Part shown: positions 2,494 to 33,835 of the stretch, in pieces
Position numbering within the stretch: position 1 is the stretch's first letter
Layout: each line of letters opens with the position of its first letter
IMG/VR virus record: IMGVR_UViG_2551306526_000008
Location: 1-40,415 of that record
Strand: one strand, 5' to 3'
DNA: 40,415 bases
From: a virus
Lineage: Duplodnaviria; Heunggongvirae; Uroviricota; Caudoviricetes
Notes under the pieces: generated by a model
What the model was told of the DNA's origin: nothing
The model's input: the letters and a program-made list of their open reading frames with translations, nothing else
The model's database searches: none
Program-made: the position numbers and the translations under genes

Positions 2494-4497
2494 TCAAATC
2501 AGCCCATAAATAACATTATGCAAATGAAGAGAGCCTGCTTCACCGGAAACATCAAAATCAATCCTAACTTTGCTTGCTCCAGGAGGAACAATATCTATTA
2601 ATGCGTAGAAATTCCATGTGGAGCCTGGTGGAATTGTAAATGTTGCTTTTCCCTGAACAGAGTTCCCTTCTTTATCAAAAAACTCAATGCCAGCGATTGT
2701 TGTCACTTGATTCTTAGCCCAAAAACCTAACTGGAAATATCGTCCTGGTGAGCAGTCGGAGCACTCCTGATAAAATTTTGCAGATGCTCCTATAGATGGT
2801 ATTGCTACATACAAAGACCTGGAAAACATAATATCATTTGGAACATCAGAATCCGTTCCTGCTGTAACAACACCTGAACCAGTTTGTTGAAGGCTCCAGT
2901 TAGAGTAGTTTAAAAACTGTCCACTGCCATTCGACAATGAGTTTATGTAAGCACTAACAATGTTACCTTTATCCCAATTTGCTGTTATAAAGCCAGCCCT
3001 GGGATAACAACCATAAGACATTACTTTCTTACTGTTCCCACCAATAATTTGACGCGCAGCAGCACCAGCGGCAATCTCTGTTTGCTCATATAGAGGAAGC
3101 GAACAGTTTGTTAGCGAGACGACCGCATCATCATTTGCAACGATTGGTATAGCTGAATATCCAGATGTAGTTAGCAGCGTTGAATCTTTAATACTCAATC
3201 TGGAACTGCCGCCAACCACAAATGCAACAAAACTTTGACTTGGTTGAAATTCAATGTTGCCATTTGCGTAAACAACTGTTGCGTTATCTTCAATAAAAAC
3301 AGTAGAATCAAAATAACCTTCTTTCTTACCTGCTGGCATAGAGCAACAGTTAAAAATAAATTGACCATTTCTCATGGTCAATGGACCTCCATTATCAACA
3401 ACCCAACAATTATTAAATGTCATTACCTCGCCTGAGTTTGATGGAGAATTAAATATAATTGTGTTGTTTAGACATCTTGATATTGTTACTTTGTCAAATA
3501 AAATTCTATATGAATTATCAAGAAACTCAATTCCAGCAGATGATATGAATGAAGAATTACTTATTCTTAACTCTGCTAATTCACCAGTGCCAATACCGCC
3601 AAGTAAAATCTTTTTAGATCCTAGCATCTTAAAAGATATGCCATCTAAAATTGATGTTGCATTTATTTCATCCCTATTATCATAAGAAATATTAGAGTTG
3701 CTTAACCTAATTGCATAATCACCTGATATCCCATTAATCTCAGTTAAAACGCATTTATTCGATCCTCTTAACCCACCCTTCGCGAAATCAATATCAATTA
3801 AACTCGAGAATTCTCCACTACATGGAACAACGCAATCATAACCTAGAGAGTTTATTTTATTAATAAATAATGCAATATCCCCAGCGCCGCTGTAACCAGC
3901 GTCATATACAGAAAACTCAAGGCTTGGGTTTATTCTCTTCCAATTTACACCGTTACCTTCTAAAACCATTACGTTATCAACTGCAATTGACTTGTCTACA
4001 GCTACAACAAACCCACCACCAAGTTCGAGTCCGGATACGTATGACTTTAAATATAATTTATCAGATATCGACATTCCTTGTATATCTTTAAGGGAGTTAG
4101 CGCTCTCTACCATTCCAATGTATTTGTAGCCAATATTACTTGATAGTTTTATAGATAACTGATCAGGATCATACTTCAGCACATTAGGAAAATAAAACTG
4201 CTGCGCACCATATGCATCATAAACAGCCATAGAATGGCCTTGCACAGTTACGAACTTGGCAATCTGTCCGTTATATACAGGGTAACCAGCAGCGTTAATG
4301 ATGATTGGTTGCGAAACAGGAACGTGAGAGCCATCTTCGTTTTCCACATAAACCTGAATCTGGTTTTCAGGATTTACCGGGTCAGTGTCAATTTTACCGA
4401 TATAAATTTTGCCATTGGCTACGGCTTTAAAAGAACGCGCCATAGTGAAGAGTTGCGATGGCATACTTACTACAACATTGGCTGTAATGTCTGTCAT
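2494..4497 (-). CDS. Tailspike protein: P22 gp9-like N-terminal head-binding domain with divergent receptor-binding/depolymerase body
   Basis: 667 aa; N-terminus [46 protein letters not shown]...VLKYDPDQ closely matches recalled P22 gp9 N-terminus; remainder not P22-like. Confidence 0.85.
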
Positions 4498-5599: not shown

Positions 5600-5667
5600 G
5601 TCAATATTTCCTAAGACGATTTGTTGATACCGAAGCCCTGACTGTTCCCGCAGTTGGGGCTTCAACT

Positions 5668-8777: not shown

Positions 8778-10180
8778 TCCACCGTAAATTGAATGCCTGA
8801 TTTTGAGGTATATGATCCAACCTGATTCCGTGGTTCTCCTGAAGGTGTCGAATCTTGTGCTGGCGCTGCGTCAGTATTCATTGACATATACCGCTTAACG
8901 GCACTCCCCAATGATTCACCTTTTTTAACATCCAACCCCAATATCTGACCGCCATTACGCGATTGTCCAGGGTTGCCATTCGCGCTCATCCACTCGGCTT
9001 TAAACTCATTAAACTGCGCGTTTCGTCGCTCAAGGTTTGCCATTGCATCAAGCCATCTTGCGACCGTCTCAGGGTTATCCATGTCAGTTGGCGCACCCTG
9101 TCGAACGATCTCAACGTCTTTATCCGTTGCTGGGCCGGGAGGTAGGAATTTAAGAACCTGACTGTTAACAAGGGCATTTTGGCGAATGCGCAAATCACGC
9201 AATGTTGTATCGCTTCCGGTAAGTTTTGCGAACATGTTCTGTGCGTTACCGAACAAACCTGTCGTTGGTTTTTCTGCTCTGAACTGTTGAGCAAGAGCAC
9301 TCATAGAATTGGCTGAGTTTGATGATGCTGTAGCATTGTTTACAGCCGTCTCGATGCCTTTTTCCATGTTTACTGACAGCTTAGGTGCTTCGCTAATCAA
9401 CTGCTGAGCCTTTTCCTGCGCTTGCTGCATCTTAAACCCGAACTCTTGCTGATCCAGAGCCAAGCGTTGTGCTGCGATATTGTGCCCAGTCATTGCTGAC
9501 TGATAGGAAAGGTTTTGCCCTCTCGCCTGAAGTGCTTCACCAGCCTGATTGCTGCGGATTGTCTCTGCCAGTCTGCCTCGGTCAATCTCACGACCAGCCA
9601 TCTTGTCCTGAACATTGAAGTAGTCAATCGGACCGAGAGCAGCCATCCCAAGGTGATCAACAAACTCACCAAATCCTGAAGGATTCTGCTGATACATCTG
9701 AGCAACGCTGTTAGGGTCAACACCGACGCGAGTCAGTTCCTTGGCGTTGTTTTGCAGCCATGATTGCATTGCTTCTGGAGACGATGACGCAAGGCGTGCG
9801 CCAGCCGCTAAGGTGCCGATAGAATTACGCTGGTCTTCATCAATGAATCCCATGCCTTTACGAACGGATTCAATCTGGTCTGGATATTGAGTAGCCAACT
9901 GACGCAAAGCACCGCGATCACCAGACGCATAAGCATTAGCGTATGCCTGCTGAAATTCTTTCTGCCGCTGAGCCTGCTTTTCCTGCTGAAACACCCCCGC
10001 AATACCTGAAAGGCCTTGCAAAGCAGTCAGCCCAACATTGTTAGCGCCTGAACGCTCAATATCATTGTTCTGCCTGATAAGCTGAAGCGTATTGCCGATG
10101 TCATTTACGCTCGGAGCGTTTGAGTTGACGCCGCCGATACCAGCCAACAATCCGCCGTTTGTTCCTTGCCAAGTAGCCAT
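8774..10180 (-). CDS. Ejection protein, P22 gp20-like
   Basis: 468 aa, [11 protein letters not shown]-terminus; position between gp16 and gp7. Confidence 0.8.
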
Positions 10181-20013: not shown

Positions 20014-20438
20014 TTTCCGAATAGAGTGCTCATCGGTGATGTTTCAATCTGGATTGCGCCGCCGTCCTTACCGACAAGCTCGTTAGTTACCTTGTCGCCA
20101 TACTTACGGGGATTCATTCGGGCCAACGCCCATTTGCGTGTATCAACGCGAAGTCTTGCCTTTGCCACTTCAGCAGCATCTGGAATCGCATTGTCAGCAA
20201 TTTCGAATATCTCTTCGAAAATAGAATCAGCTCGTGCCTCAGTTGCCTTCGCGTACTTGTCGCGAAAATCCTCATGCTTTGCCAACCAGCGGAAAACAGT
20301 GGACTTATCCGGCATACCAGGACGCTTACATACTTTCAGCAAACTTTCGCCAGAAGAAAGCAACGAGCAGATATCGTCAGCCACCTCCGGCATATAATCA
20401 GAGGGGCGACCAGCTTTTGGTTCAGTCGCCATATTCAT
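20010..20438 (-). CDS. Terminase small subunit (Sf6 gp1-like)
   Basis: 142-aa ORF; sequence from MATEPKAGRPSDYMPEVADD matches recalled Sf6 small terminase. Confidence 0.85.
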   Translation of the reverse strand: MNMATEPKAGRPSDYMPEVADDICSLLSSGESLLKVCKRPGMPDKSTVFRWLAKHEDFRDKYAKATEARADSIFEEIFEIADNAIPDAAEVAKARLRVDTRKWALARMNPRKYGDKVTNELVGKDGGAIQIETSPMSTLFGK

Positions 20439-20455
20439 CTCACTTAGTTGTTATT

Positions 20456-20635
20456 TCAGGCTGAGGACTCTTTCGCGCCTTCAATCAGTGACTGCTTCAG
20501 CAATTCAAGTGTGCCAATCGCCTCGCATAAACTGATTTCACCATCGTAATCATGGATGACGCTTTCCAGCCGCTTGTATAGCTCTTGAGTAATTGGGAAT
20601 TTCTTCTCCTTACCAAGATCAACGACGCTTGTCAT
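20456..20635 (-). CDS. Small hypothetical protein (59 aa) upstream of terS
   Basis: Untracked ORF read by hand: MTSVVDLGKEKKFPITQELYKRLESVIHDYDGEISLCEAIGTLELLKQSLIEGAKESSA; tightly packed in late operon. Confidence 0.4.
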   Translation of the reverse strand: MTSVVDLGKEKKFPITQELYKRLESVIHDYDGEISLCEAIGTLELLKQSLIEGAKESSA

Positions 20636-20644
20636 AGAGGATTC

Positions 20645-20932
20645 CTATAATTTTGAATATCCAGACTCAAATACCTCAGCAGGAGAATATGATTCATATC
20701 CATCCTCATAGACAACGTAATAGCCTCCAGACATTGGTCGGTGCTTACAGATATATTCCGCGCTAACATCAAATGCTGCGTATTTCTTATCATCCGGATG
20801 AATAATTGCCCCATAACTAGAAGATCCAGTCTTACCAGACTGATCTGGGTTTGGCTTATGTTCTATAGATCCAATCTTCAGGGCGCGAACTTTTTTGTGG
20901 CACTGGTATCTCGGCATTTCTTGTTCAGTCAT
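20645..20932 (-). CDS. Hypothetical late-operon protein
   Basis: 95-aa ORF, co-oriented and tightly spaced with neighbours. Confidence 0.5.
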   Translation of the reverse strand: MTEQEMPRYQCHKKVRALKIGSIEHKPNPDQSGKTGSSSYGAIIHPDDKKYAAFDVSAEYICKHRPMSGGYYVVYEDGYESYSPAEVFESGYSKL

Positions 20933-20935
20933 CTC

Positions 20936-21178
20936 TTACACTCCGGTGGTGAACAGGTCTAACGCTTCCTTCGATTTACGCACCGCTTCGATAGTGCGAG
21001 ACGTGAAGTCTGGATTTGCACCGCCATCGTTGTAGTGCAACTTGAACAATTCCAGTTTCAGCTGGTCAGCACCAATGAATGCAAAGGCTTCCTCTGCCGC
21101 TGAATTGTTCTTAGATAGCAGTCGGTAAATTTCTAACTTGAATTTCTGTTCTTCAGTCATGGGAATAATCTCTGCCAT
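20936..21178 (-). CDS. Hypothetical late-operon protein
   Basis: 80-aa ORF, 3 bp from next gene. Confidence 0.5.
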   Translation of the reverse strand: MAEIIPMTEEQKFKLEIYRLLSKNNSAAEEAFAFIGADQLKLELFKLHYNDGGANPDFTSRTIEAVRKSKEALDLFTTGV

Positions 21179-21324
21179 TGTTGGCTCCGTTTATCCGTTA
21201 AAAGGGATATCAGTTAAGTTATCCCGTGTAGGGTATAAGCCATTATCAAAGCCACTCTGTAGGGAATGGCTTTTGTGATGGCAATAAAAAAGGCCGACTT
21301 AGCGACCAATTTAATAATTAATTA

Positions 21325-21567
21325 TCAATAATGTGGGAATTGGCTACTATTTTGCAAGATAACCCAAGATGGGCGAAACAAGTCAAAAACATTGATGCTT
21401 AACAGGGCTTCATTTATTGATTTTTTTTCATCCGTAGAAACTCCACGTCCTGCATTTGACATTACAAGCTGACAATTAACTATTTCACTACATTGTTTTA
21501 CATAACTACCTGGCGGCATTGATTGAAAGTTACATGTACCATTTATTATTTTATCAATTTCACTCAT
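21325..21567 (-). CDS. Hypothetical Cys-containing small protein in AT-rich moron
   Basis: 80-aa ORF with GAGG Shine-Dalgarno; locally AT-rich DNA (about 21300-21600) unlike flanking phage genes. Confidence 0.45.
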   Translation of the reverse strand: MSEIDKIINGTCNFQSMPPGSYVKQCSEIVNCQLVMSNAGRGVSTDEKKSINEALLSINVFDLFRPSWVILQNSSQFPHY

Positions 21568-21861
21568 ATCAACCTCGTCTAGTTGTTCGTCATAGATTCA
21601 GTGGCTGGCGGTGACGATTCCGCTTTTCGGGAGCTACCCTAGCCACTGTTTTATTCTATCCGATGTCTTTCCATCAGTCCGCCACCACAAAGAATCTTTT
21701 TTGCCATAAGGCTGGAGGTTCATCTTTCAGTGGCTGCCAGTGTTATTTCCCCACTTACTGGCTTGGGTTGTATCGCTGTACTGCCGTAACTGGTTGCCCA
21801 GAATAAATTCCGGTTTCATTATCAAGCCCACCCGTAGATAGGCTTTGTAATGCCTACATGG

Positions 21862-22341
21862 TTAAATGATTTGCCAGTCTTCAGCCATCAGGTCGCCAAT
21901 GGATGGAACCCATGTAGCAAGGCGGTTCTGTGAGTTTTTCAATACAAGCGTGTCATTGAAAGTTGGCTCGCCAACATATTCGCCAAAGCCATAACCCAAC
22001 GCAGACGCTAATTTTTCCCCTTTCACGAGATAAACAAACTGGTCTTTCCCATTCCATCCTGCCCGCTGCAAACTTTTGCCCTGTTTTAACGCTTCCATGG
22101 CAAGGCCGAAACTTAGCCCTGATACCGGACGATAAGCCTTTTCGAATACTTCTTTTGGACTCCAGCTAACGTAGCCATCAAAGCGATCGGTGTTAGGTTT
22201 TCCGCCATCCAGATATTCAACCAGATAGCCTTCGTCCTCGCCGTTTTCTCCGGCAGGAAGCTGCCAGCCACGAAAATCGTTATATGCCTGTCTCGTCATC
22301 GGAAAGGCGTTAATCAGTTTTACGCCAATATGCTGGGTCAT
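21862..22341 (-). CDS. Hypothetical protein with C-terminal DUF2829-like (Tad2-like) domain
   Basis: 159 aa; C-terminal ALKQGKSLQRAGWNGKDQFVYLV...WVPSIGDLMAEDWQII fits recalled DUF2829 motif pattern (GWNGK ... LAEDW); N-terminal half looks like a degenerate repeat of it. Confidence 0.6.
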   Translation of the reverse strand: MTQHIGVKLINAFPMTRQAYNDFRGWQLPAGENGEDEGYLVEYLDGGKPNTDRFDGYVSWSPKEVFEKAYRPVSGLSFGLAMEALKQGKSLQRAGWNGKDQFVYLVKGEKLASALGYGFGEYVGEPTFNDTLVLKNSQNRLATWVPSIGDLMAEDWQII

Positions 22342-22564
22342 AAAATTACCTATGGAGTTGGGAATAAAAAGCCCCGCGAATGCGAGGCTAAATCCTGGGT
22401 ATTTGTAATGAACTGGCTCTTATCTCAACGCAGCCCCTTACCGCGCGCCAGATGCTCAACTTCAAGCATCAGCAATGAGATGTTTAATCTGGATTCACTC
22501 CAGAAGTGATCACCACCCTGTCTACAGAGCCAGATGTGAAGGATGATGAGTAAAATTATCGCTA

Positions 22565-23002
22565 TCATCGAAGGCATTGCGTCCTGATGTATTCCTGCAA
22601 GTAGTTAACCTGCGCGGTTATCTTGTCGATTCCACTTCTGAGACGGTAATAATTGAGTTCAGCATCTGCTGTAAGTCTTGGGCTTTCTCCATCGCCCATG
22701 CTGCTGGCTCCGGTCGTTGACTTTGCACAGGTGGCGGCGACTTGCAGCCGCTTACGCCCAGCAGAAACATCAGCACGGAGACTTTCGATAGTCGCGTTAG
22801 CATCAGCAAGCTCCTTTGTGTATCTGGCGTCGAGTTCTGCTACATCACGTTGACGCTTCTGCATGTCAGCGATGATGTACGTGGCTTTATCGCGCTGTTC
22901 TTTATAGGTAATGGCGTTATCACGGTAATGATTAACAGCCCATGACAGACAGACGATGATGCAGATAACCAGAGCGGAGATAATCGCGGTGACTCTGCTC
23001 AT
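22565..23002 (-). CDS. Rz: Rz i-spanin
   Basis: 145 aa; [34 protein letters not shown] matches recalled lambda Rz N-terminus; follows endolysin. Confidence 0.85.
22618..22809 (-). CDS. Rz1: Rz1 o-spanin lipoprotein embedded in Rz (+1 frame)
   Basis: 63-aa ORF wholly inside Rz; lipobox-like LLGVSGC followed by Pro-rich segment. Confidence 0.6.
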
Positions 23003-29003: not shown

Positions 29004-29868
29004 GAACTTTCAGGTAGGTATTATCGTTAAGCAGGAAATCAAATCCCTTTTTGTGCCAGACAGTTCCGCGTTGATGGTTTGGGCGCTCTTCGAACATCCA
29101 TCGGCAATTTTCTCCTACGTAGCTCAAATAATTTCTCCAGTCCTGCATCGTGAACCCATGCCCGTCAAGCTGGCGGGTTATCACTCCGGCTTTGCGCCAG
29201 AACGTTCGGATCTGGTTTTTACGCTTGTCATTCAGTGCGCGGATTCTTGGCGCTTCAGGAAGGATTTCGTGGTAAGCATCGACAACATCCTGACAGCTAA
29301 CGGAAGGTTTTTTCTTGTCAGACTTTTTGTCTGCTGTGGCACTCTCTAATACGTCAGTATTAGAGATATTATTTATATTATTGTTTATGGACAACCGTTG
29401 GACAACCGTTGGACAATCTCCGCTGAGAGCCGCGCCATTACTGGTGTTTGCGTTGGACAACCGTTGGACAACCGTTGGACAATTTTTTGCCTGAAAATCG
29501 TCATATTTAACGATTGTAAACAGGCTAAATTTCTTCCCCATCGAGGAAATATTAAGCATCCCTTTCGACTCAAAAGTCCGTAATAAGCTCCGAACTTTGT
29601 TGTCGGGGATGAATGTTTCTCTGACCAGCGACGGGCGTCCAGTTATCATCTGACCGCGATCAACAGTTATCGGACCGATATCCGTATTGACGACAGTAGA
29701 TTCGTGATTAGCCTTGAGGATTAAGTGAAGCCAAAGATGTACTGCCTGAGAGTCCTTATAGAGCCTGCTGTCCATAAACTGGCGGTGTATAGAGACATAC
29801 CCCATACTGGATGCCTCCTGATGTTGTACAGGGTTATGCCTGTAATCAGCTAACTTAACGACGCCCAT
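28978..29868 (-). CDS. Replication initiator (lambda O-like) carrying the origin iterons
   Basis: 296 aa; internal repeated peptide CPTVVQRLS encoded by iteron DNA; lies upstream of helicase as O-P pair. Confidence 0.8.
   Translation of the reverse strand: MGVVKLADYRHNPVQHQEASSMGYVSIHRQFMDSRLYKDSQAVHLWLHLILKANHESTVVNTDIGPITVDRGQMITGRPSLVRETFIPDNKVRSLLRTFESKGMLNISSMGKKFSLFTIVKYDDFQAKNCPTVVQRLSNANTSNGAALSGDCPTVVQRLSINNNINNISNTDVLESATADKKSDKKKPSVSCQDVVDAYHEILPEAPRIRALNDKRKNQIRTFWRKAGVITRQLDGHGFTMQDWRNYLSYVGENCRWMFEERPNHQRGTVWHKKGFDFLLNDNTYLKVREGEHDDR
29388..29484. repeat. Replication origin iterons: two clusters of 3 x 11-bp tggacaaccgt repeats, with adjacent AT-rich tract at about 29345-29385
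   Basis: Directly visible tandem repeats at 29388-29419 and 29451-29484 inside the O-like gene. Confidence 0.8.
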
Positions 29869-30016
29869 GTTTCACTCCTGCTTTGGCTAGTCTGTAAACA
29901 CCAACAAGGCGCTCTGCGAACGCCCTGTTATTTGCTGCGGCTACCACTAATCCCTCAGGTGAATCAGGGTGTCGAATCTCTTCTTTTTCCTGGTATTTCT
30001 TACGACGTTTTGTCAT
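29855..30016 (-). CDS. Small basic hypothetical protein (53 aa) between cII and O
   Basis: Untracked ORF MTKRRKKYQEKEEIRHPDSPEGLVVAAANNRAFAERLVGVYRLAKAGVKHGRR; overlaps O start by 14 nt. Confidence 0.3.
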   Translation of the reverse strand: MTKRRKKYQEKEEIRHPDSPEGLVVAAANNRAFAERLVGVYRLAKAGVKHGRR

Positions 30017-30048
30017 AATTACTCCTGTGGATTGATCCAGTAATTCCC

Positions 30049-30345
30049 TCAGAATTGCATATCAATTTGCTTAAAATCCTCGGTGGCGGCCGGGGATTTT
30101 TTCTTTGTGATTCCATCAAGCGCATACTTAAAAGCCCTGCTAATCGGACTGATGTCTGATGCCATTCCGAAAGCACACAAGACCGAAGCAATAAATCTCC
30201 AGTCCGTTCTGCTTATCTTCGATTCATGACAGCCAATCATCTTTGCCAGACCGCGCTGGGTAAGCGTTGACAGGTTGATGAGTAAATCAGTTTCAGCGCG
30301 ATCAACGTCACGCTGTGATAGTTTGCTGTAACTTGTTTGTTCCAT
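30049..30345 (-). CDS. cII: CII-like transcriptional activator
   Basis: 98 aa; helix-turn-helix TQRGLAKMIGCHESKISR and C-terminal KKSPAATEDFKQIDMQF resembling lambda CII tail KKRPAATERSEQIQMEF. Confidence 0.75.
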   Translation of the reverse strand: MEQTSYSKLSQRDVDRAETDLLINLSTLTQRGLAKMIGCHESKISRTDWRFIASVLCAFGMASDISPISRAFKYALDGITKKKSPAATEDFKQIDMQF

Positions 30346-30464
30346 TTCTTATGATTTCCATAGATAAATAATTTGGTTTTTTATTGTGCACCATTGACAG
30401 TCGTCCATGACCACGCCGGGCACCCGACCGTATACCGGGCCGTTCGGTATAAAAATTTGCTTTA

Positions 30465-30695
30465 TTAAGCTGCTTTGTTCGGATTGGGGAACAAAGCGGA
30501 TAAATCAGGGCGAATCAGGTATGCAGGGACGCTTCCATTGGTAGCCATTTCAATGCGCTTGGCATTTTCAGCGGATACCCTTTTCTTCCCATGCAACCAA
30601 GCCCATACAGACGGCTGCTTAACACCGCAGGCATCAGCTAACTTTTGCTGACTTCCTACTGAGTCAATAGCCGCTTTAATAGCCTCGTTGACCAT
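30465..30695 (-). CDS. cro: Cro-like repressor (HTH)
   Basis: ORF 30465-30719 trimmed to ATG at 30695 with AGGAG Shine-Dalgarno; HTH QQKLADACGVKQPSVWAW; divergent from cI across operators. Confidence 0.75.
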   Translation of the reverse strand: MVNEAIKAAIDSVGSQQKLADACGVKQPSVWAWLHGKKRVSAENAKRIEMATNGSVPAYLIRPDLSALFPNPNKAA

Positions 30696-30729
30696 AAAAA
30701 TAACTCCTACTGAATCCACAATCAGAATA

Positions 30730-30792
30730 ATAGCTAAAGCTATTCAGAAAGTAAATAGCTTTGGGTATTTGACTAATAATAGCTGTAGCTAT
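30730..30792. promoter_or_regulatory. Right operator region (OR) with divergent pR/pRM: ATAGCT-nn-AGCTAT-type sites
   Basis: atagctaaagctat (30730-30743), atagctttgggtat (30755-30768), atagctgtagctat (30779-30792) between cro and cI. Confidence 0.7.
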
Positions 30793-30803
30793 AGGTTGTA
30801 CGA

Positions 30804-31535
30804 ATGAAACTAGATACTTTTTCTCAAAGGCTTACATACGCGATGGATCAGGCTGGGTTTACTCAGGCTTCTCTTGGCAATGCTGTTGGCATGTCTCAGC
30901 CAAGCGTCTGGAAACTTACGTCTGGAAAAACACGCAATACGCGCAAACTTTTTGAAATATCAAAAGTGCTTGGAGTTCGTACGGAATGGCTTTCCGATGG
31001 AACTGGGCCAATGCGTGATGAGGGAGTTGAACCTTATAATCCAAAATCTTCTATTCCTCATGAAAGCACGTGGGGATATTTGGACCCATGGGATGGAGGA
31101 ACGCCTTTAAGAGGTGATGAAGTTGAAATTCCTTACCTTAAAGATATTGAGTTTGCATGCGGGGATGGTCGGGTGATTGATGAAGATCACAACGGCTTTA
31201 TGTTGCGCTTCTCCAAATCAACCCTTCGCAGAGTTGGCGCGAACAGTGATGGAAGCGGTGTTGTTTGTTTTCCGGCTCGTGGCAACAGCATGGAGCCAAA
31301 CATTCCTGATGGAACAACAGTTGCTGTTAACACCAACGATAAGAAAATAGTTGACGGAAAGATTTACGCCATTAACGAGAACGGTTGGAAACGCATTAAG
31401 ATTCTCTTTCGATCAGGGCCTGACAAGGTAAGCATTAGAAGCTTTAACTCACTGGAGTACCCACAAGAAGAAAAGAATCTAAGCGATATCGAGATCATCG
31501 GAAGAATCTTCTGGTGGTCTGTAGTTGACTACTAA
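30804..31535 (+). CDS. cI: CI-type prophage repressor (HTH plus S24 LexA-like autopeptidase domain)
   Basis: 243 aa; N-terminal HTH QASLGNAVGMSQPSVWKL; C-terminal GNSMEP...K catalytic dyad motif. Confidence 0.85.
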   Translation: MKLDTFSQRLTYAMDQAGFTQASLGNAVGMSQPSVWKLTSGKTRNTRKLFEISKVLGVRTEWLSDGTGPMRDEGVEPYNPKSSIPHESTWGYLDPWDGGTPLRGDEVEIPYLKDIEFACGDGRVIDEDHNGFMLRFSKSTLRRVGANSDGSGVVCFPARGNSMEPNIPDGTTVAVNTNDKKIVDGKIYAINENGWKRIKILFRSGPDKVSIRSFNSLEYPQEEKNLSDIEIIGRIFWWSVVDY

Positions 31536-31552
31536 CCTCATCACACCACAAC

Positions 31553-31576
31553 AAACCCGCTTTTTGCGGGTTTTTT
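31553..31576 (+). terminator. Intrinsic terminator after cI
   Basis: aaacccgc ttttt gcgggttt hairpin followed by T-run. Confidence 0.7.
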
Positions 31577-31659
31577 ATTGCCCAAAAAACACCAAATCTC
31601 ACATACAAGAAAAATAAATTACATTAGATATCAATGACTAAATAACCAAAGGAGTTATT

Positions 31660-31700
31660 TTATAACTATAGCTATTTACAGCAATAATAGCTTTGGATAT
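31660..31700. promoter_or_regulatory. Left operator/pL candidate (OL): ATAGCT-type repressor sites
   Basis: tatagctatttacagcaataatagctttggatat repeats the OR half-site motif; located right of cI where early-left transcription should start. Confidence 0.5.
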
Positions 31701-31860
31701 AGTTAAGCCATGTCGAACGGCGCGACATTAAACCATGCGTCGGGAGCGCGGCGGGTTCAGGATGAACGGCAATGCTGCTCATTAGCGAGAAGGCTTTTTT
31801 GCTTTTAGTCACAAAAAGCAAAGCAGCTTTTTGATATAGAAAAAGAAAAAGGAGGCTGAT

Positions 31861-32304
31861 TTGAAGAGTGCTACAGTTTACACGGCAATGAGAGTTAAGC
31901 AATATGGCGGCGTACCTTCGGTAGAGGTAAGGTGTGATGATAAAAGAACCAAAGTTGTTACTGATTGCCTTCTGCTTTTTAAAAGCATAGATGAGGTAAT
32001 TTTTATTGGCGCTGAAAATCTTCACCCTTTGATAAAAGCAGAGATGAAGCAATGTGCAATCGATGCATTGGGAGTTGGGCAAGGCAAGTCTCAGATCGAA
32101 GCAAAGCAAATGCTTACAGAGCTTGAAAGCAGCAGACGTAGACAAGCAAGCAGGGCAAGACAATTTCACGATGCGATCGCAGGATGGAGCAGAGAGCTTA
32201 TGTCTTTAAATGTAGACATACAGAGAGGAATTGATATTCCAACAATAAGGTCAAGAATAGGTACGATCGCAGAGAACATGGAAAAGCTAAATCCAAAGAA
32301 ATAA
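31861..32304 (+). CDS. Hypothetical first early-left protein (possible antitermination factor by position)
   Basis: 147-aa ORF with TTG start preceded by GGAGG; internal Arg-rich segment SSRRRQASRARQFHDAIAGW; start codon uncertain. Confidence 0.45.
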   Translation: MKSATVYTAMRVKQYGGVPSVEVRCDDKRTKVVTDCLLLFKSIDEVIFIGAENLHPLIKAEMKQCAIDALGVGQGKSQIEAKQMLTELESSRRRQASRARQFHDAIAGWSRELMSLNVDIQRGIDIPTIRSRIGTIAENMEKLNPKK

Positions 32305-32328
32305 TAACCCGCTAAGGCGGGTTTTTTA
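32305..32328 (+). terminator. Intrinsic terminator
   Basis: aacccgc taag gcgggtt hairpin followed by T6. Confidence 0.7.
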
Positions 32329-32439
32329 TTACATAAATAACCGTATTTACTACCGCAAGCCACGCAGTGAAATGGGTGTGACTTGTGTTGGTCGCCAGAA
32401 AATGAAATTAGGCAGCAAACCACTTATTTGAGGTGATAT

Positions 32440-32691
32440 ATGGAATTTCATGAAAGTGCGATTTATGATTTTCGCGCTAACGCAAATTCAGTAAAACCAC
32501 AGCCAATTGCAGTTCTTTTTAAAACAATGGGTGCGTGGGCTGTTTTATGCTTCGCCTCTGATGACACTGACGCAAGAATGGCAATAGGTCAAGAGATGGA
32601 GATGGACCCGACAAACGATGAATTCATAATTTATGGCGCTCCATCTAATTACTTACTTGATACCTGCAACATTTACAACAAGGCTGCCTGA
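32440..32691 (+). CDS. Hypothetical protein
   Basis: 83-aa ORF in early-left operon; no recognised family. Confidence 0.45.
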   Translation: MEFHESAIYDFRANANSVKPQPIAVLFKTMGAWAVLCFASDDTDARMAIGQEMEMDPTNDEFIIYGAPSNYLLDTCNIYNKAA

Positions 32692-32827
32692 CGGTGGCCT
32701 TTATTTTTGGCATAAACAACAGAATAAACACTGCACTGTGTATTCATTCCAACGAGTGAATACACGGAGCAATGTCGCTCGTAACTAAACAGGAGCCGAC
32801 TTGTTCTGATTATTGGAAATCTTCTTT

Positions 32828-32854
32828 GCCCTCCGATGTGAGGGCAATTTTTTT
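32828..32854 (+). terminator. Intrinsic terminator immediately upstream of coiled-coil gene
   Basis: gccctc cgatgt gagggc hairpin followed by aattttttt. Confidence 0.65.
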
Positions 32855-32866
32855 GATGGAGGATAT

Positions 32867-33835
32867 ATGAGTGAAGTAACAGATTTAGTTGTTATTGAAA
32901 AAGCAAATGCAATGACTGTATTTCAGTCTGCCGACCAGATTGAAGAAATCCTTCAAAAGGTTGAACGTGAAGTTATGTCCTTTGTGCCTGATATCACAAC
33001 GGCAAAGGGCAGGAAGGAGATCGCTTCTCTGGCGTATAAAGTTGCGCAGACGAAAACATATCTCGATGGTCTTGGCAAAGACCTTGTTGCTGAACTGAAG
33101 GAAATTCCAAAGCTAATTGATGCCAACCGCAAAACAGTGCGTGATCGCCTTGATGAACTGAAAGCCAAGGCGCGCCAGCCTCTTACTGATTATGAGGAAG
33201 AACAGGCGCGGATTAAAGCCGAAGAAGAAGCTAAGGCAGCAGCTGAAGCTCTCGCAAAGCAAATTGAGTCTGACCATGAAATAGCGATTTTGATGGATCG
33301 CGAATTTGACCGCCAAAGAGAAGAGGCAAGACTCAAAGCGGAGCAGGAAAAGCGAGAGCATGAAGAACGCTTAAAAAGAGAAGCTGAAGAGAAAGCCAGA
33401 GCAGAAGCCGAAGCAAAGGCAAAAGCCGAAATTGAAGCAGCAGCAAGGCGAGAAGCAGAAGCTAAGGCCGCAGAGGAACGTGCAGAGCGTGAACGCATTG
33501 AAGCCGAGCAACGAGCACAGCGCGAAGCAAAAGAGGCAGCAGAACGAGCTGAAAGAGAAAAGCAGGCAGCAATTGAAGCAGAACGCAGAAAAGCACAGGA
33601 GGAGGTTGAACGAATCCGTCGCGAGGCTGAAGCAAAAGAGCAAGCCAGAATAGCAGAAGAAAAAAGAATCAATGACGAAGAAGAGCGCAGAGCAAAGGAT
33701 AAAGCTCACCGGAAAGAAGTAAATAACAAAATACTTGCTGACCTTATCAAGGTTGGCGCATCAGAAGATGTTGCTAAAAATATCATAACAGCCATCGTAA
33801 AAGGCGAAGTATTCGCAACAAAAATAACCTACTAA
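32867..33835 (+). CDS. Hypothetical protein with long E/R/K/A-rich predicted single alpha-helix or coiled-coil region
   Basis: ORF 32813-33835 trimmed to ATG at 32867 after GGAGG; ~190-residue low-complexity charged helix (AEAKAKAEIEAAARREAEAKAAEERAERER...). Confidence 0.65.
   Translation: MSEVTDLVVIEKANAMTVFQSADQIEEILQKVEREVMSFVPDITTAKGRKEIASLAYKVAQTKTYLDGLGKDLVAELKEIPKLIDANRKTVRDRLDELKAKARQPLTDYEEEQARIKAEEEAKAAAEALAKQIESDHEIAILMDREFDRQREEARLKAEQEKREHEERLKREAEEKARAEAEAKAKAEIEAAARREAEAKAAEERAERERIEAEQRAQREAKEAAERAEREKQAAIEAERRKAQEEVERIRREAEAKEQARIAEEKRINDEEERRAKDKAHRKEVNNKILADLIKVGASEDVAKNIITAIVKGEVFATKITY

Follow-up and report, generated by a model that had tools for sequence, protein, structure and literature searches.

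The orphan gene considered here is preceded by a copy of the int-alpA RNA (Rfam RF02996), a structured element that, judging from sequence comparison, probably acts in cis as a leader controlling the translation of mobile cargo genes. The gene and its leader lie in a window of 40,415 nucleotides, i.e. the whole stretch of DNA analysed, taken from a virus of the Caudoviricetes (IMG/VR record IMGVR_UViG_2551306526_000008). Comparisons across relatives show RNA-level constraint on the three-way junction of this element, on a loop with two alternative candidate partners and on a predicted hairpin bearing the Shine-Dalgarno (SD) sequence, all at a fixed distance from the start codons of unrelated genes; since pairing persists in P1, P2, the P3 variants, the loop–box pairs and P4 despite differences in sequence, the structure of the RNA appears to be under selection. 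The preliminary description of the locus had pointed to an AT-rich segment of acquired cargo with an 80-aa ORF and a pair of 17-bp direct repeats; what it observed is partly confirmed and what it made of these observations is partly supported. For the window itself, the outcome is mostly clarification: the "repeats" dissolve and the locus is an ordinary moron with an orphan gene.

The window is a P22/Sf6-like Escherichia coli prophage, as follows from the set of neighbouring genes together with the sar RNA and the tRNA-Arg(CCU) that are also encoded in it. The genes around the locus are all on the minus strand, in the order holin, endolysin (23475-22999), Rz (23002-22565) and a 159-aa protein (22341-21862) containing a Tad2-like (Thoeris anti-defence 2-like) domain (E=6e-22). 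Downstream of the latter come a 294-bp stretch (21861-21568), the 80-aa ORF (21567-21325) and a DUF2560 protein (21178-20936), beyond which, still on the minus strand, two small ORFs precede the small terminase (20438-20010) and the large terminase. The slot holding the cassette is a variable cargo site situated between the lysis genes, accompanied by the Tad2-like gene, and the DUF2560/terminase genes.

Concerning base composition, the low GC content claimed for the locus was borne out by a windowed calculation (200-nt windows), which gave 0.33-0.335 at 21300-21599 as against approximately 0.44-0.50 in both flanks. The AT-rich segment, originally drawn from 21300 to 21860, is nevertheless AT-rich only in the ORF, the RNA leader just upstream having 56% G+C. 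The non-coding stretch, given before as roughly 295 bp, is indeed one: it measures 294 bp (21568-21861) and its longest ORF on either strand does not exceed 47 aa. A 34-aa ORF at 21831-21727 was considered as a gene and rejected, its frame being broken in the phages L, Sf6 and P22 by indels and insertions; a relic of a tRNA or tmRNA was also sought in the non-coding stretch and none was found.

The comparison with related phages, proposed as a check in the preliminary description, identifies the segment as an insertion, the backbone being continuous on both sides and other DNA occupying the same slot. Upstream, the window aligns with P22, Sf6, L, HK544 and Huey as far as ...GACATC(G), at about 21661, past which each of six aligned phages carries different DNA; downstream, homology to the compared phages resumes at AT(C/T)ACAAAAGCC, at about 21279. 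The cargo cassette between these boundaries (21280..21660, minus strand; about 380 bp) consists of a -10-like box, the int-alpA leader, the ORFan and a terminator. The backbone spacer upstream of the slot, about 200 bp long (about 21661..21857, minus strand), is not part of the cassette; among the 203 phage records matching the 294-bp non-coding stretch, most have it at 90-97% identity, and it is intergenic in P22 (rha to orf25), Sf6 (g65 to g66) and HK544. The DNA flanking the slot is shared, with 90-97% conservation, by about 200 P22-like and lambdoid phages in which this point is occupied by other cargo.

The cassette is closed by an intrinsic-terminator-like hairpin, GGUCG-CUAAGU-CGGCC followed by U6 (21286..21307, minus strand), recognized by consensus match only. 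The same hairpin also closes the cassette of the Salmonella phage BIS08P22, in which the same leader (93% identity) and this terminator enclose different ORFs. The whole cassette is present in 15 of 5,426 complete E. coli genomes, where its RefSeq label is just hypothetical protein; one E. coli carrying it is 8GC (NZ_CM136786.1, 1457442-1457817). Because the slot is filled differently in relatives, and because of the deviant GC content (0.33), the terminator-like hairpin and the rarity of the ORF, the reading of the segment as an acquired moron cassette, already advanced in the preliminary description, is supported. At the other end of the cassette, the hexamer TAGAAT (21653..21658, minus strand), lying 4 nt upstream of P1, is a -10-like box read from the sequence and accompanied by no convincing -35. 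Promoter and sRNA prediction, likewise suggested beforehand, thus had a mixed outcome: the int-alpA RNA was matched, but the TAGAAT box was not called by a scan for consensus sigma-70 promoters. It should be pointed out that the window promoter, as a -10-like box alone and uncalled by the scan, is weak evidence. The scan did report a promoter-like site elsewhere (21572-21545), which is uninformative and overlaps the start codon.

A related arrangement is offered by the pid moron, located between orf25 and orf80 of P22, an interval that we take to correspond to the lysis-to-terminase slot of the cassette. Both are extra transcription-unit-like inserts in a P22-like late region, each with an orphan gene; the two differ in that their ORFs are unrelated and in that the leader of the cassette belongs to a conserved RNA family and its promoter is putative. 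The location of pid in the P22 late region is given in PMC3573128, and its weak promoter, long 5' UTR and Rho-independent terminator stabilizing the transcript have been described (PMC8835761).

The 80-aa ORF itself (21325..21567, minus strand) is an ORFan with a GC content of about 0.33 and three predicted helices. It is present as announced, although its product contains three cysteines, not four, and close homologues contain two. The absence of a recognizable family, too, stands: no family was found in Pfam, PHROGs or PADLOC. Its DNA has no match among 50,697 phage records, and a search of 5.8 billion proteins yielded only six clusters of homologues (at the 90% identity level), 73-100% identical to the query, all the clusters with a source name being from E. 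coli. Homology and structure prediction, also proposed as a check in the preliminary description, remained unproductive; apart from the missing family, AlphaFold returned a low-confidence three-helix model (pLDDT 67), for which Foldseek found no match in BFVD (best E=1.7). In the phages Huey and Louie, some annotators give an anti-CRISPR label to genes in this slot. A role of the 80-aa protein in host interaction or anti-defence is only a guess, prompted by the Tad2-like neighbour and by these labels in the same slot.

The leader of this ORF is, according to both score and fold, a member of the Rfam int-alpA family. The match (21587..21649, minus strand) reaches 42.0 bits in cmscan, the gathering score being 35.8, with E-values of 1e-6 (region) and 1.6e-5 (whole window), and it covers the model full-length (positions 1-71). 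In a relaxed Rfam scan of 20400-22900, int-alpA was the sole significant match, the other families at the relaxed threshold being represented only by a chance-level AbsR28 match; in the whole window, it is the only non-tRNA, non-sar Rfam family above threshold. The three-way junction, supported by the minimum-free-energy (MFE) fold and the int-alpA model alike, is formed on the minus strand by P1 (21648-21641 with 21606-21599), P2 (21639-21637 with 21631-21629) and P3 (21623-21620 with 21611-21608), P3 being capped by the loop AAUCGUCA (21619-21612) and the junction strands in the window being CUA, GAAAA and C(U/A)G. The MFE fold of 21652-21562 yields the same junction plus an additional hairpin, P4 (z=-2.3).

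Two short boxes on the same strand can pair with the P3 loop. Box A (UGACGA, 21587..21592, minus strand), positioned single-stranded just 3' of the junction, forms 6 bp with the P3 loop bases UCGUCA and is a candidate pseudoknot partner. Box B (GACGA, 21579-21575, minus strand) lies in the loop of P4, the hairpin CAACU/GGUUG of the MFE fold (21570..21585, minus strand). The SD sequence GAGG (21576-21573, minus strand) is divided equally between the P4 loop and the 3' arm and ends 5 nt ahead of the AUG (21567).

With the int-alpA family the window copy shares the above-threshold score, the P1/P2/P3 junction, the conserved strands and a proteobacterial host. It differs by its location in a P22-like late region—surrounded by lysis, Tad2-like, DUF2560 and terminase genes and without any integrase/alpA context—20 nt before the SD of an orphan gene, as well as by the absence of a U-run after P1, where it reads AAUCUAU and the consensus reads ...gcuuuuuuu. 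Many phage copies likewise lack the U-run; some int-alpA copies do have a U-tract after P1. It should be noted that Rfam types int-alpA as an sRNA and that its consensus has a U-run after P1, which counts against the cis-leader reading. The data presented here, in contrast to that typing, point to a cis leader, and this reading extends the Rfam annotation by candidate elements, box A and P4/box B, that its structure line does not include. Among the papers searched, int-alpA is named only in a listing of its presence in genomes, with no function, and there was nothing on RF02996 and nothing relevant on a characterized leader of comparable kind. The motif goes back to Weinberg et al. 2017 (PMC5737381), the main text of which does not discuss it.

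The identification of the leader also settles the nature of the two 17-bp repeats, which had been suggested to be protein-binding sites or the ends of a small embedded element. The two 17-mers do exist, at 21597..21613 (plus strand) and 21726-21742, 129 bp apart and identical in 15 of 17 positions; they do not, however, make up a functional pair. Read on the minus strand, the first copy starts with the final 2 nt of the P3 loop, runs through the P3 3' strand, the junction and the P1 3' strand and ends 2 nt beyond the latter, i.e. it is int-alpA RNA, while the second copy lies within the conserved backbone spacer outside the cassette. First-order Markov shuffles of the window each yield 1.2 +/- 1.0 pairs of 17-mers that match in at least 15 positions and lie within 300 nt; the pattern-specific chance expectation for this very pair is 0, but that figure is post hoc and leaves the verdict of the shuffles unchanged. 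The second copy is intact in P22, Sf6, L, HK544 and Huey, all of which are without the int-alpA segment, and the first copy varies along with the covarying P1, the helix sequence of which is entirely different in other int-alpA copies. It follows that the resemblance is confined to this combination of subfamily and backbone. Moreover, part of the identity is contributed by a U-to-A junction variant that is present in the window and absent from most relatives. Since about 1.2 such pairs are met per shuffle and the two copies are of different evolutionary origin, one from the cassette and the other from the backbone, we conclude that the pair represents a coincidental resemblance of the P1 3' strand to backbone sequence. 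Neither recurrence beyond chance nor co-inheritance, as would be expected from iteron- or operator-type repeats or from element termini, was found for the two 17-mers, and the cassette boundaries (about 21660 and about 21280) are away from both of them. Apart from the near-identity and close spacing of the copies, little speaks for paired protein-binding sites or termini of a small element, which are hence hardly credible. The idea that the backbone 17-mer is what is left of another int-alpA was also rejected, there being no Rfam match at that place at E up to 1.

With regard to relatives, IMG/VR and GTDB genomes were scanned with a pattern of the junction core, and at least 120 loci were taken from each (about 240 in all). 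The pattern fixed CTAG, CGAAAAGCGG and CCGCC, and the invariance of these and of the P3 stem in the collection is thus by design; some of the pattern matches in GC-rich genomes, devoid of P1, are spurious. All 18 related loci that were re-tested passed the Rfam gathering score. The genomes are assigned by GTDB to at least six phyla besides proteobacteria, and across phyla the junction nucleotides are highly conserved. Over the approximately 240 loci, the motif is co-oriented with the next ORF and usually found 35-60 nt before its start codon. What follows varies widely: the 97 distinct downstream proteins of the viral loci fall into 73 clusters, including HNH, GIY-YIG and endonuclease VII nucleases, Dam and other methyltransferases, DUF1376 replication-type, Rha, DUF551 and ParB-like proteins and many small orphans. 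At the genome loci, the downstream proteins are mostly of unknown families, an integrase being downstream in only one of 49. No hint of a riboswitch-type ligand emerged from the gene associations of the viral and genome loci.

Among enterobacterial phages, a nearly identical leader is joined to at least 18 different ORFs, with the breakpoint within a few nt of the ATG. The int-alpA segment is also shared down to the ATG by the Edwardsiella phage GF-2 and the Pseudomonas phage IME307, each of them having a different small ORF behind it, and in both cases the homology stops at the start codon. Such breakpoints could mean that the leader, with or without the terminator, acts mainly at the level of DNA, as a patch of homology or a homing-endonuclease target for the exchange of ORFs. 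The sharing of leader and terminator but not of the ORF with BIS08P22 would fit this, as would the prominence of HNH and GIY-YIG endonucleases, which are met more often than any other cargo that can be identified. Preservation of pairing in spite of sequence change, however, is a signature of selection on RNA structure and not on a DNA site, and a mainly DNA-level role, even though it could coexist with one of the RNA, is accordingly very unlikely.

Evidence for such preservation comes from each part of the structure. For P1 and P2, covariation was assessed in 49 relatives; the MAFFT alignment is in register only for the inner P1, P2 and P3, and these were counted. In P1 and P2, 91% of cells are paired compared with 35-47% for slid partners, and the covariation score is 0.386 compared with 0.087 in shuffles. 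As for P3, copies found only by the Rfam model change GCGG/CCGC to CCGG/CCGG and to GCAG/CUGC. The loop–box pairs and P4 were evaluated by shuffle- and cross-controlled scripts. With 60 distinct loops, box A forms at least 6 contiguous bp with its own P3 loop in 68% of cases versus 9.6% of cross-pairings (p=4e-27), and box B does so in 53% versus 25% (p=2e-9), the latter control being high because many loops resemble the anti-Shine-Dalgarno sequence. The Rfam consensus, too, has a loop, aaCCuUua, complementary to its tail, uaAgGG. Of 75 relatives, 80% have a P4-type hairpin of at least 5 bp shortly ahead of the start codon, compared with 46% of shuffles (p=1e-10); the arm pairs are of 65 different sequences, and a complement of the P3 loop lies inside the P4 loop in 58 of 69 hairpins.

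The transcriptional context of the motif is of two main kinds. At 61 of 144 loci, it begins no more than 40 nt after an upstream co-directional stop codon, without enrichment of -10 boxes; the motif is therefore often intercistronic, not the 5' end of a transcript. At 54 loci with a longer gap—the class to which the window copy belongs—a -10-like hexamer is found 2-12 nt before P1 in 29, as compared with 10 of 54 in a control window; a divergent upstream gene is present at 21 loci. One Brocadiia MAG contains an array of three int-alpA copies about 2.4 kb apart, two of which share the same loop. The presence of several copies per element, some of them with identical P3 loops, is easier to reconcile with action in cis than with one immunity RNA working in trans.

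These contexts could also be accounted for by a static element, i.e. an insulator, stabilizer or processing signal that provides a context-independent 5' end and ribosome site, maybe through self-cleavage or an RNase, and does no switching. RiboJ, an engineered part, has a comparable layout, in which a three-way-junction ribozyme is followed by a hairpin presenting the ribosome-binding site. A motif that precedes unrelated genes, is often intercistronic (4-40 nt past the upstream stop) and also follows -10-like boxes, keeps its junction nucleotides across phyla and occurs in arrays with one copy per gene would suit such a function. The two mutually exclusive, covarying loop partners, boxes A and B, would nonetheless be needless for a static fold; the core departs from the hammerhead consensus, J1/2 being CUA and not CUGANGA, and no Rfam ribozyme family matches. 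Taken together, a static element is an unlikely explanation. A hammerhead-like core as such was rejected, as the junction strands do not fit.

The complementarity between the P3 loop and a box next to the ribosome-binding site of the downstream gene on the same transcript is a trait of another known system. The c4 RNA of P1/P7, with the targets a1b1/a2b2, silences icd/ant, and the CI RNA of P4 targets seqA/seqC; both resemble the leader as structured RNAs upstream of their own target, with a loop complementary to the ribosome-binding-site region and a duplicated target. In a regulation of this type, the junction would be excised and its P3 loop would pair with box B, in cis as well as in trans on sister copies, to silence the cargo. 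The second target copy, the sRNA class assigned by Rfam, a closing helix of 7-8 bp resembling the stem of a processed RNA and the great diversity of loop and box sequences (60 distinct loops) would agree with it. The leader, however, exhibits no sequence or covariance-model similarity to c4 or CI—the C4 model (RF01695) has no match in the window, either at E up to 1 or at the gathering score—and it has one recognition loop instead of two, with no conserved 3' CCA or other sign of processing. The multiple copies per element and very diverse cargo, mostly not of antirepressor or immunity function, are different as well, and the identical loops within one element give no sign of diversifying specificity there. 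An antisense RNA of the c4/CI type is thus improbable.

The cis-acting leader, favoured here, would work as follows. Read on the minus strand, the cassette would proceed from the -10-like box through a structured leader of about 85 nt and the AT-rich 80-aa gene to the terminator, with the P3 loop partitioning between box A and box B. When held by box A, the P3 loop would leave the P4 loop and the SD available and the ribosome site free; when kissing box B, it would mask or remodel that site. The opposite sign is conceivable, with the pairing being activating, as in the pseudoknot of the IncI-alpha/IncB plasmids. In those plasmids, the pseudoknot activates translation and is blocked by an antisense RNA acting in trans. 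Their repZ/repA leaders (Rfam PK-repZ and PK-repBA) are similar to the int-alpA leader in that a loop pairs next to a structured ribosome site and in that upstream translation could remodel the fold; they differ in that the activating pseudoknot and the trans antisense belong to plasmids, the pairing in the leader being a candidate one.

The conserved junction may be the part responding to an input, whether a ligand, a protein or ribosomes that complete translation of the gene upstream. That the junction strands are strictly conserved across phyla points to a binding partner of the junction or to the need for a precise tertiary fold. With respect to ribosomes, the upstream stop codon lies 4-25 nt from P1 in many copies, where a terminating ribosome would melt P1, and this position suggests coupling to upstream translation. 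The conserved junction, together with an SD-linked alternative pairing, might represent an aptamer with its expression platform.

In its broadest form, which can be put forward only tentatively, int-alpA would not be a trans-acting sRNA but a widespread portable cis-regulatory adaptor, whose junction senses an input and toggles the P3 loop between the decoy box and the loop of the SD hairpin. It is equally tentative that the adaptor would serve, in phages and prophages of many phyla, a cargo of homing endonucleases, methyltransferases, replication starters and orphans or anti-defence candidates. The wider value of the locus lies in its leader, a representative of an orphan Rfam family, and not in the features that first drew attention to it. 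If confirmed, int-alpA would be reclassified from an sRNA to a cis-acting expression module of mobile genes, and a leader of about 110 nt joined to a reporter would make a simple system for the expression of cargo independently of the insertion context. If true, the adaptor would represent a new class of riboswitch-like or coupling device, by means of which cassettes would be expressed correctly wherever they are inserted.

The non-coding spacer of approximately 200 bp located at 21657-21857 exhibits 90-97% identity across some 200 phages of the P22-like and lambdoid types, HK022 and P22 being among them, and matches no Rfam family and contains no conserved reading frame. The genes preceding it are unrelated between the phages, covering rha, kilA-N, Tad2-like and Sf6 g65. 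Concerning the cargo slot, i.e. the variable interval between the lysis genes and the DUF2560/terminase genes, it has one copy of a repeated element on each side, consisting of a hairpin followed by GATAATG (AAAGCC...GGCTTTGATAATG; 21241-21255 and 21817-21831, or, in a wider delimitation, about 21245-21283 and 21812-21849). The element is also conserved in the phages Sf6, HK544 and Huey and is similar to what has been annotated as "boundary sequences" in Sf6; its role may be that of a joint for recombination or of a terminator working in both directions.

The int-alpA leader RNA of the cassette occupying the slot is found in exactly the same form, the rare junction A variant included, in a related locus (L096; about 9090-9210 in + strand coordinates, the motif itself lying on the - strand), where it is followed by a 71-aa DUF551-like ORF in place of the 80-aa ORF, the point of exchange between leader and ORF being no more than about 3 nt away from the ATG. 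The int-alpA arrays seen have one copy per gene: three copies, all on the - strand, in a Brocadiia MAG (L184; 802-870, 3172-3240 and 5612-5678), two of the three sharing identical P3 loops; two in tandem on the + strand in a Planctomycetota MAG (L199; 1641-1708 and 2052-2120); and two divergent ones in a viral contig (L016; 1660-1727 on the - strand and 3843-3914 on the + strand). Another viral contig (L023) harbours an int-alpA copy together with a Proteo-phage-1 RNA (RF03044, 69 bits; 2653-2735, - strand). The translation-initiation region of the cassette ORF (21565-21587; AACAACUAGACGAGGUUGAUAUG) is 74% identical to that of the small terminase gene (20430-20452; AACAACUAAGUGAGAUGAAUAUG).

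With regard to the window as a whole, 12 pairs of near-identical 17-mers not more than 300 nt apart are present versus 1.2 expected, the majority of them being clustered at 29386-33524 and about 36472, where they presumably serve the immunity/replication region as operators or iterons. The P22-type immI region is marked by the sar antisense RNA (RF00262, 73 bits) at 5601-5667 on the + strand, and the tRNA-Arg(CCU) near the window start (1009-1083, + strand) is probably the prophage attachment site.

Immediately upstream of the cargo slot there is a gene for a 159-aa protein (22341-21862, - strand) carrying a domain of the Tad2-like type (DUF2829; Thoeris anti-defence 2-like) with E=6e-22; it shares phrog_872 with a 95-aa ORF (20932-20645), which matches the N-terminal part of this PHROG. 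In the phages Huey and Louie, some annotators have labelled genes in the slot anti-CRISPR. Based on the Tad2-like gene and the ORF of the same PHROG, the lysis-to-terminase interval looks like a hotspot for accessory or anti-defence genes.
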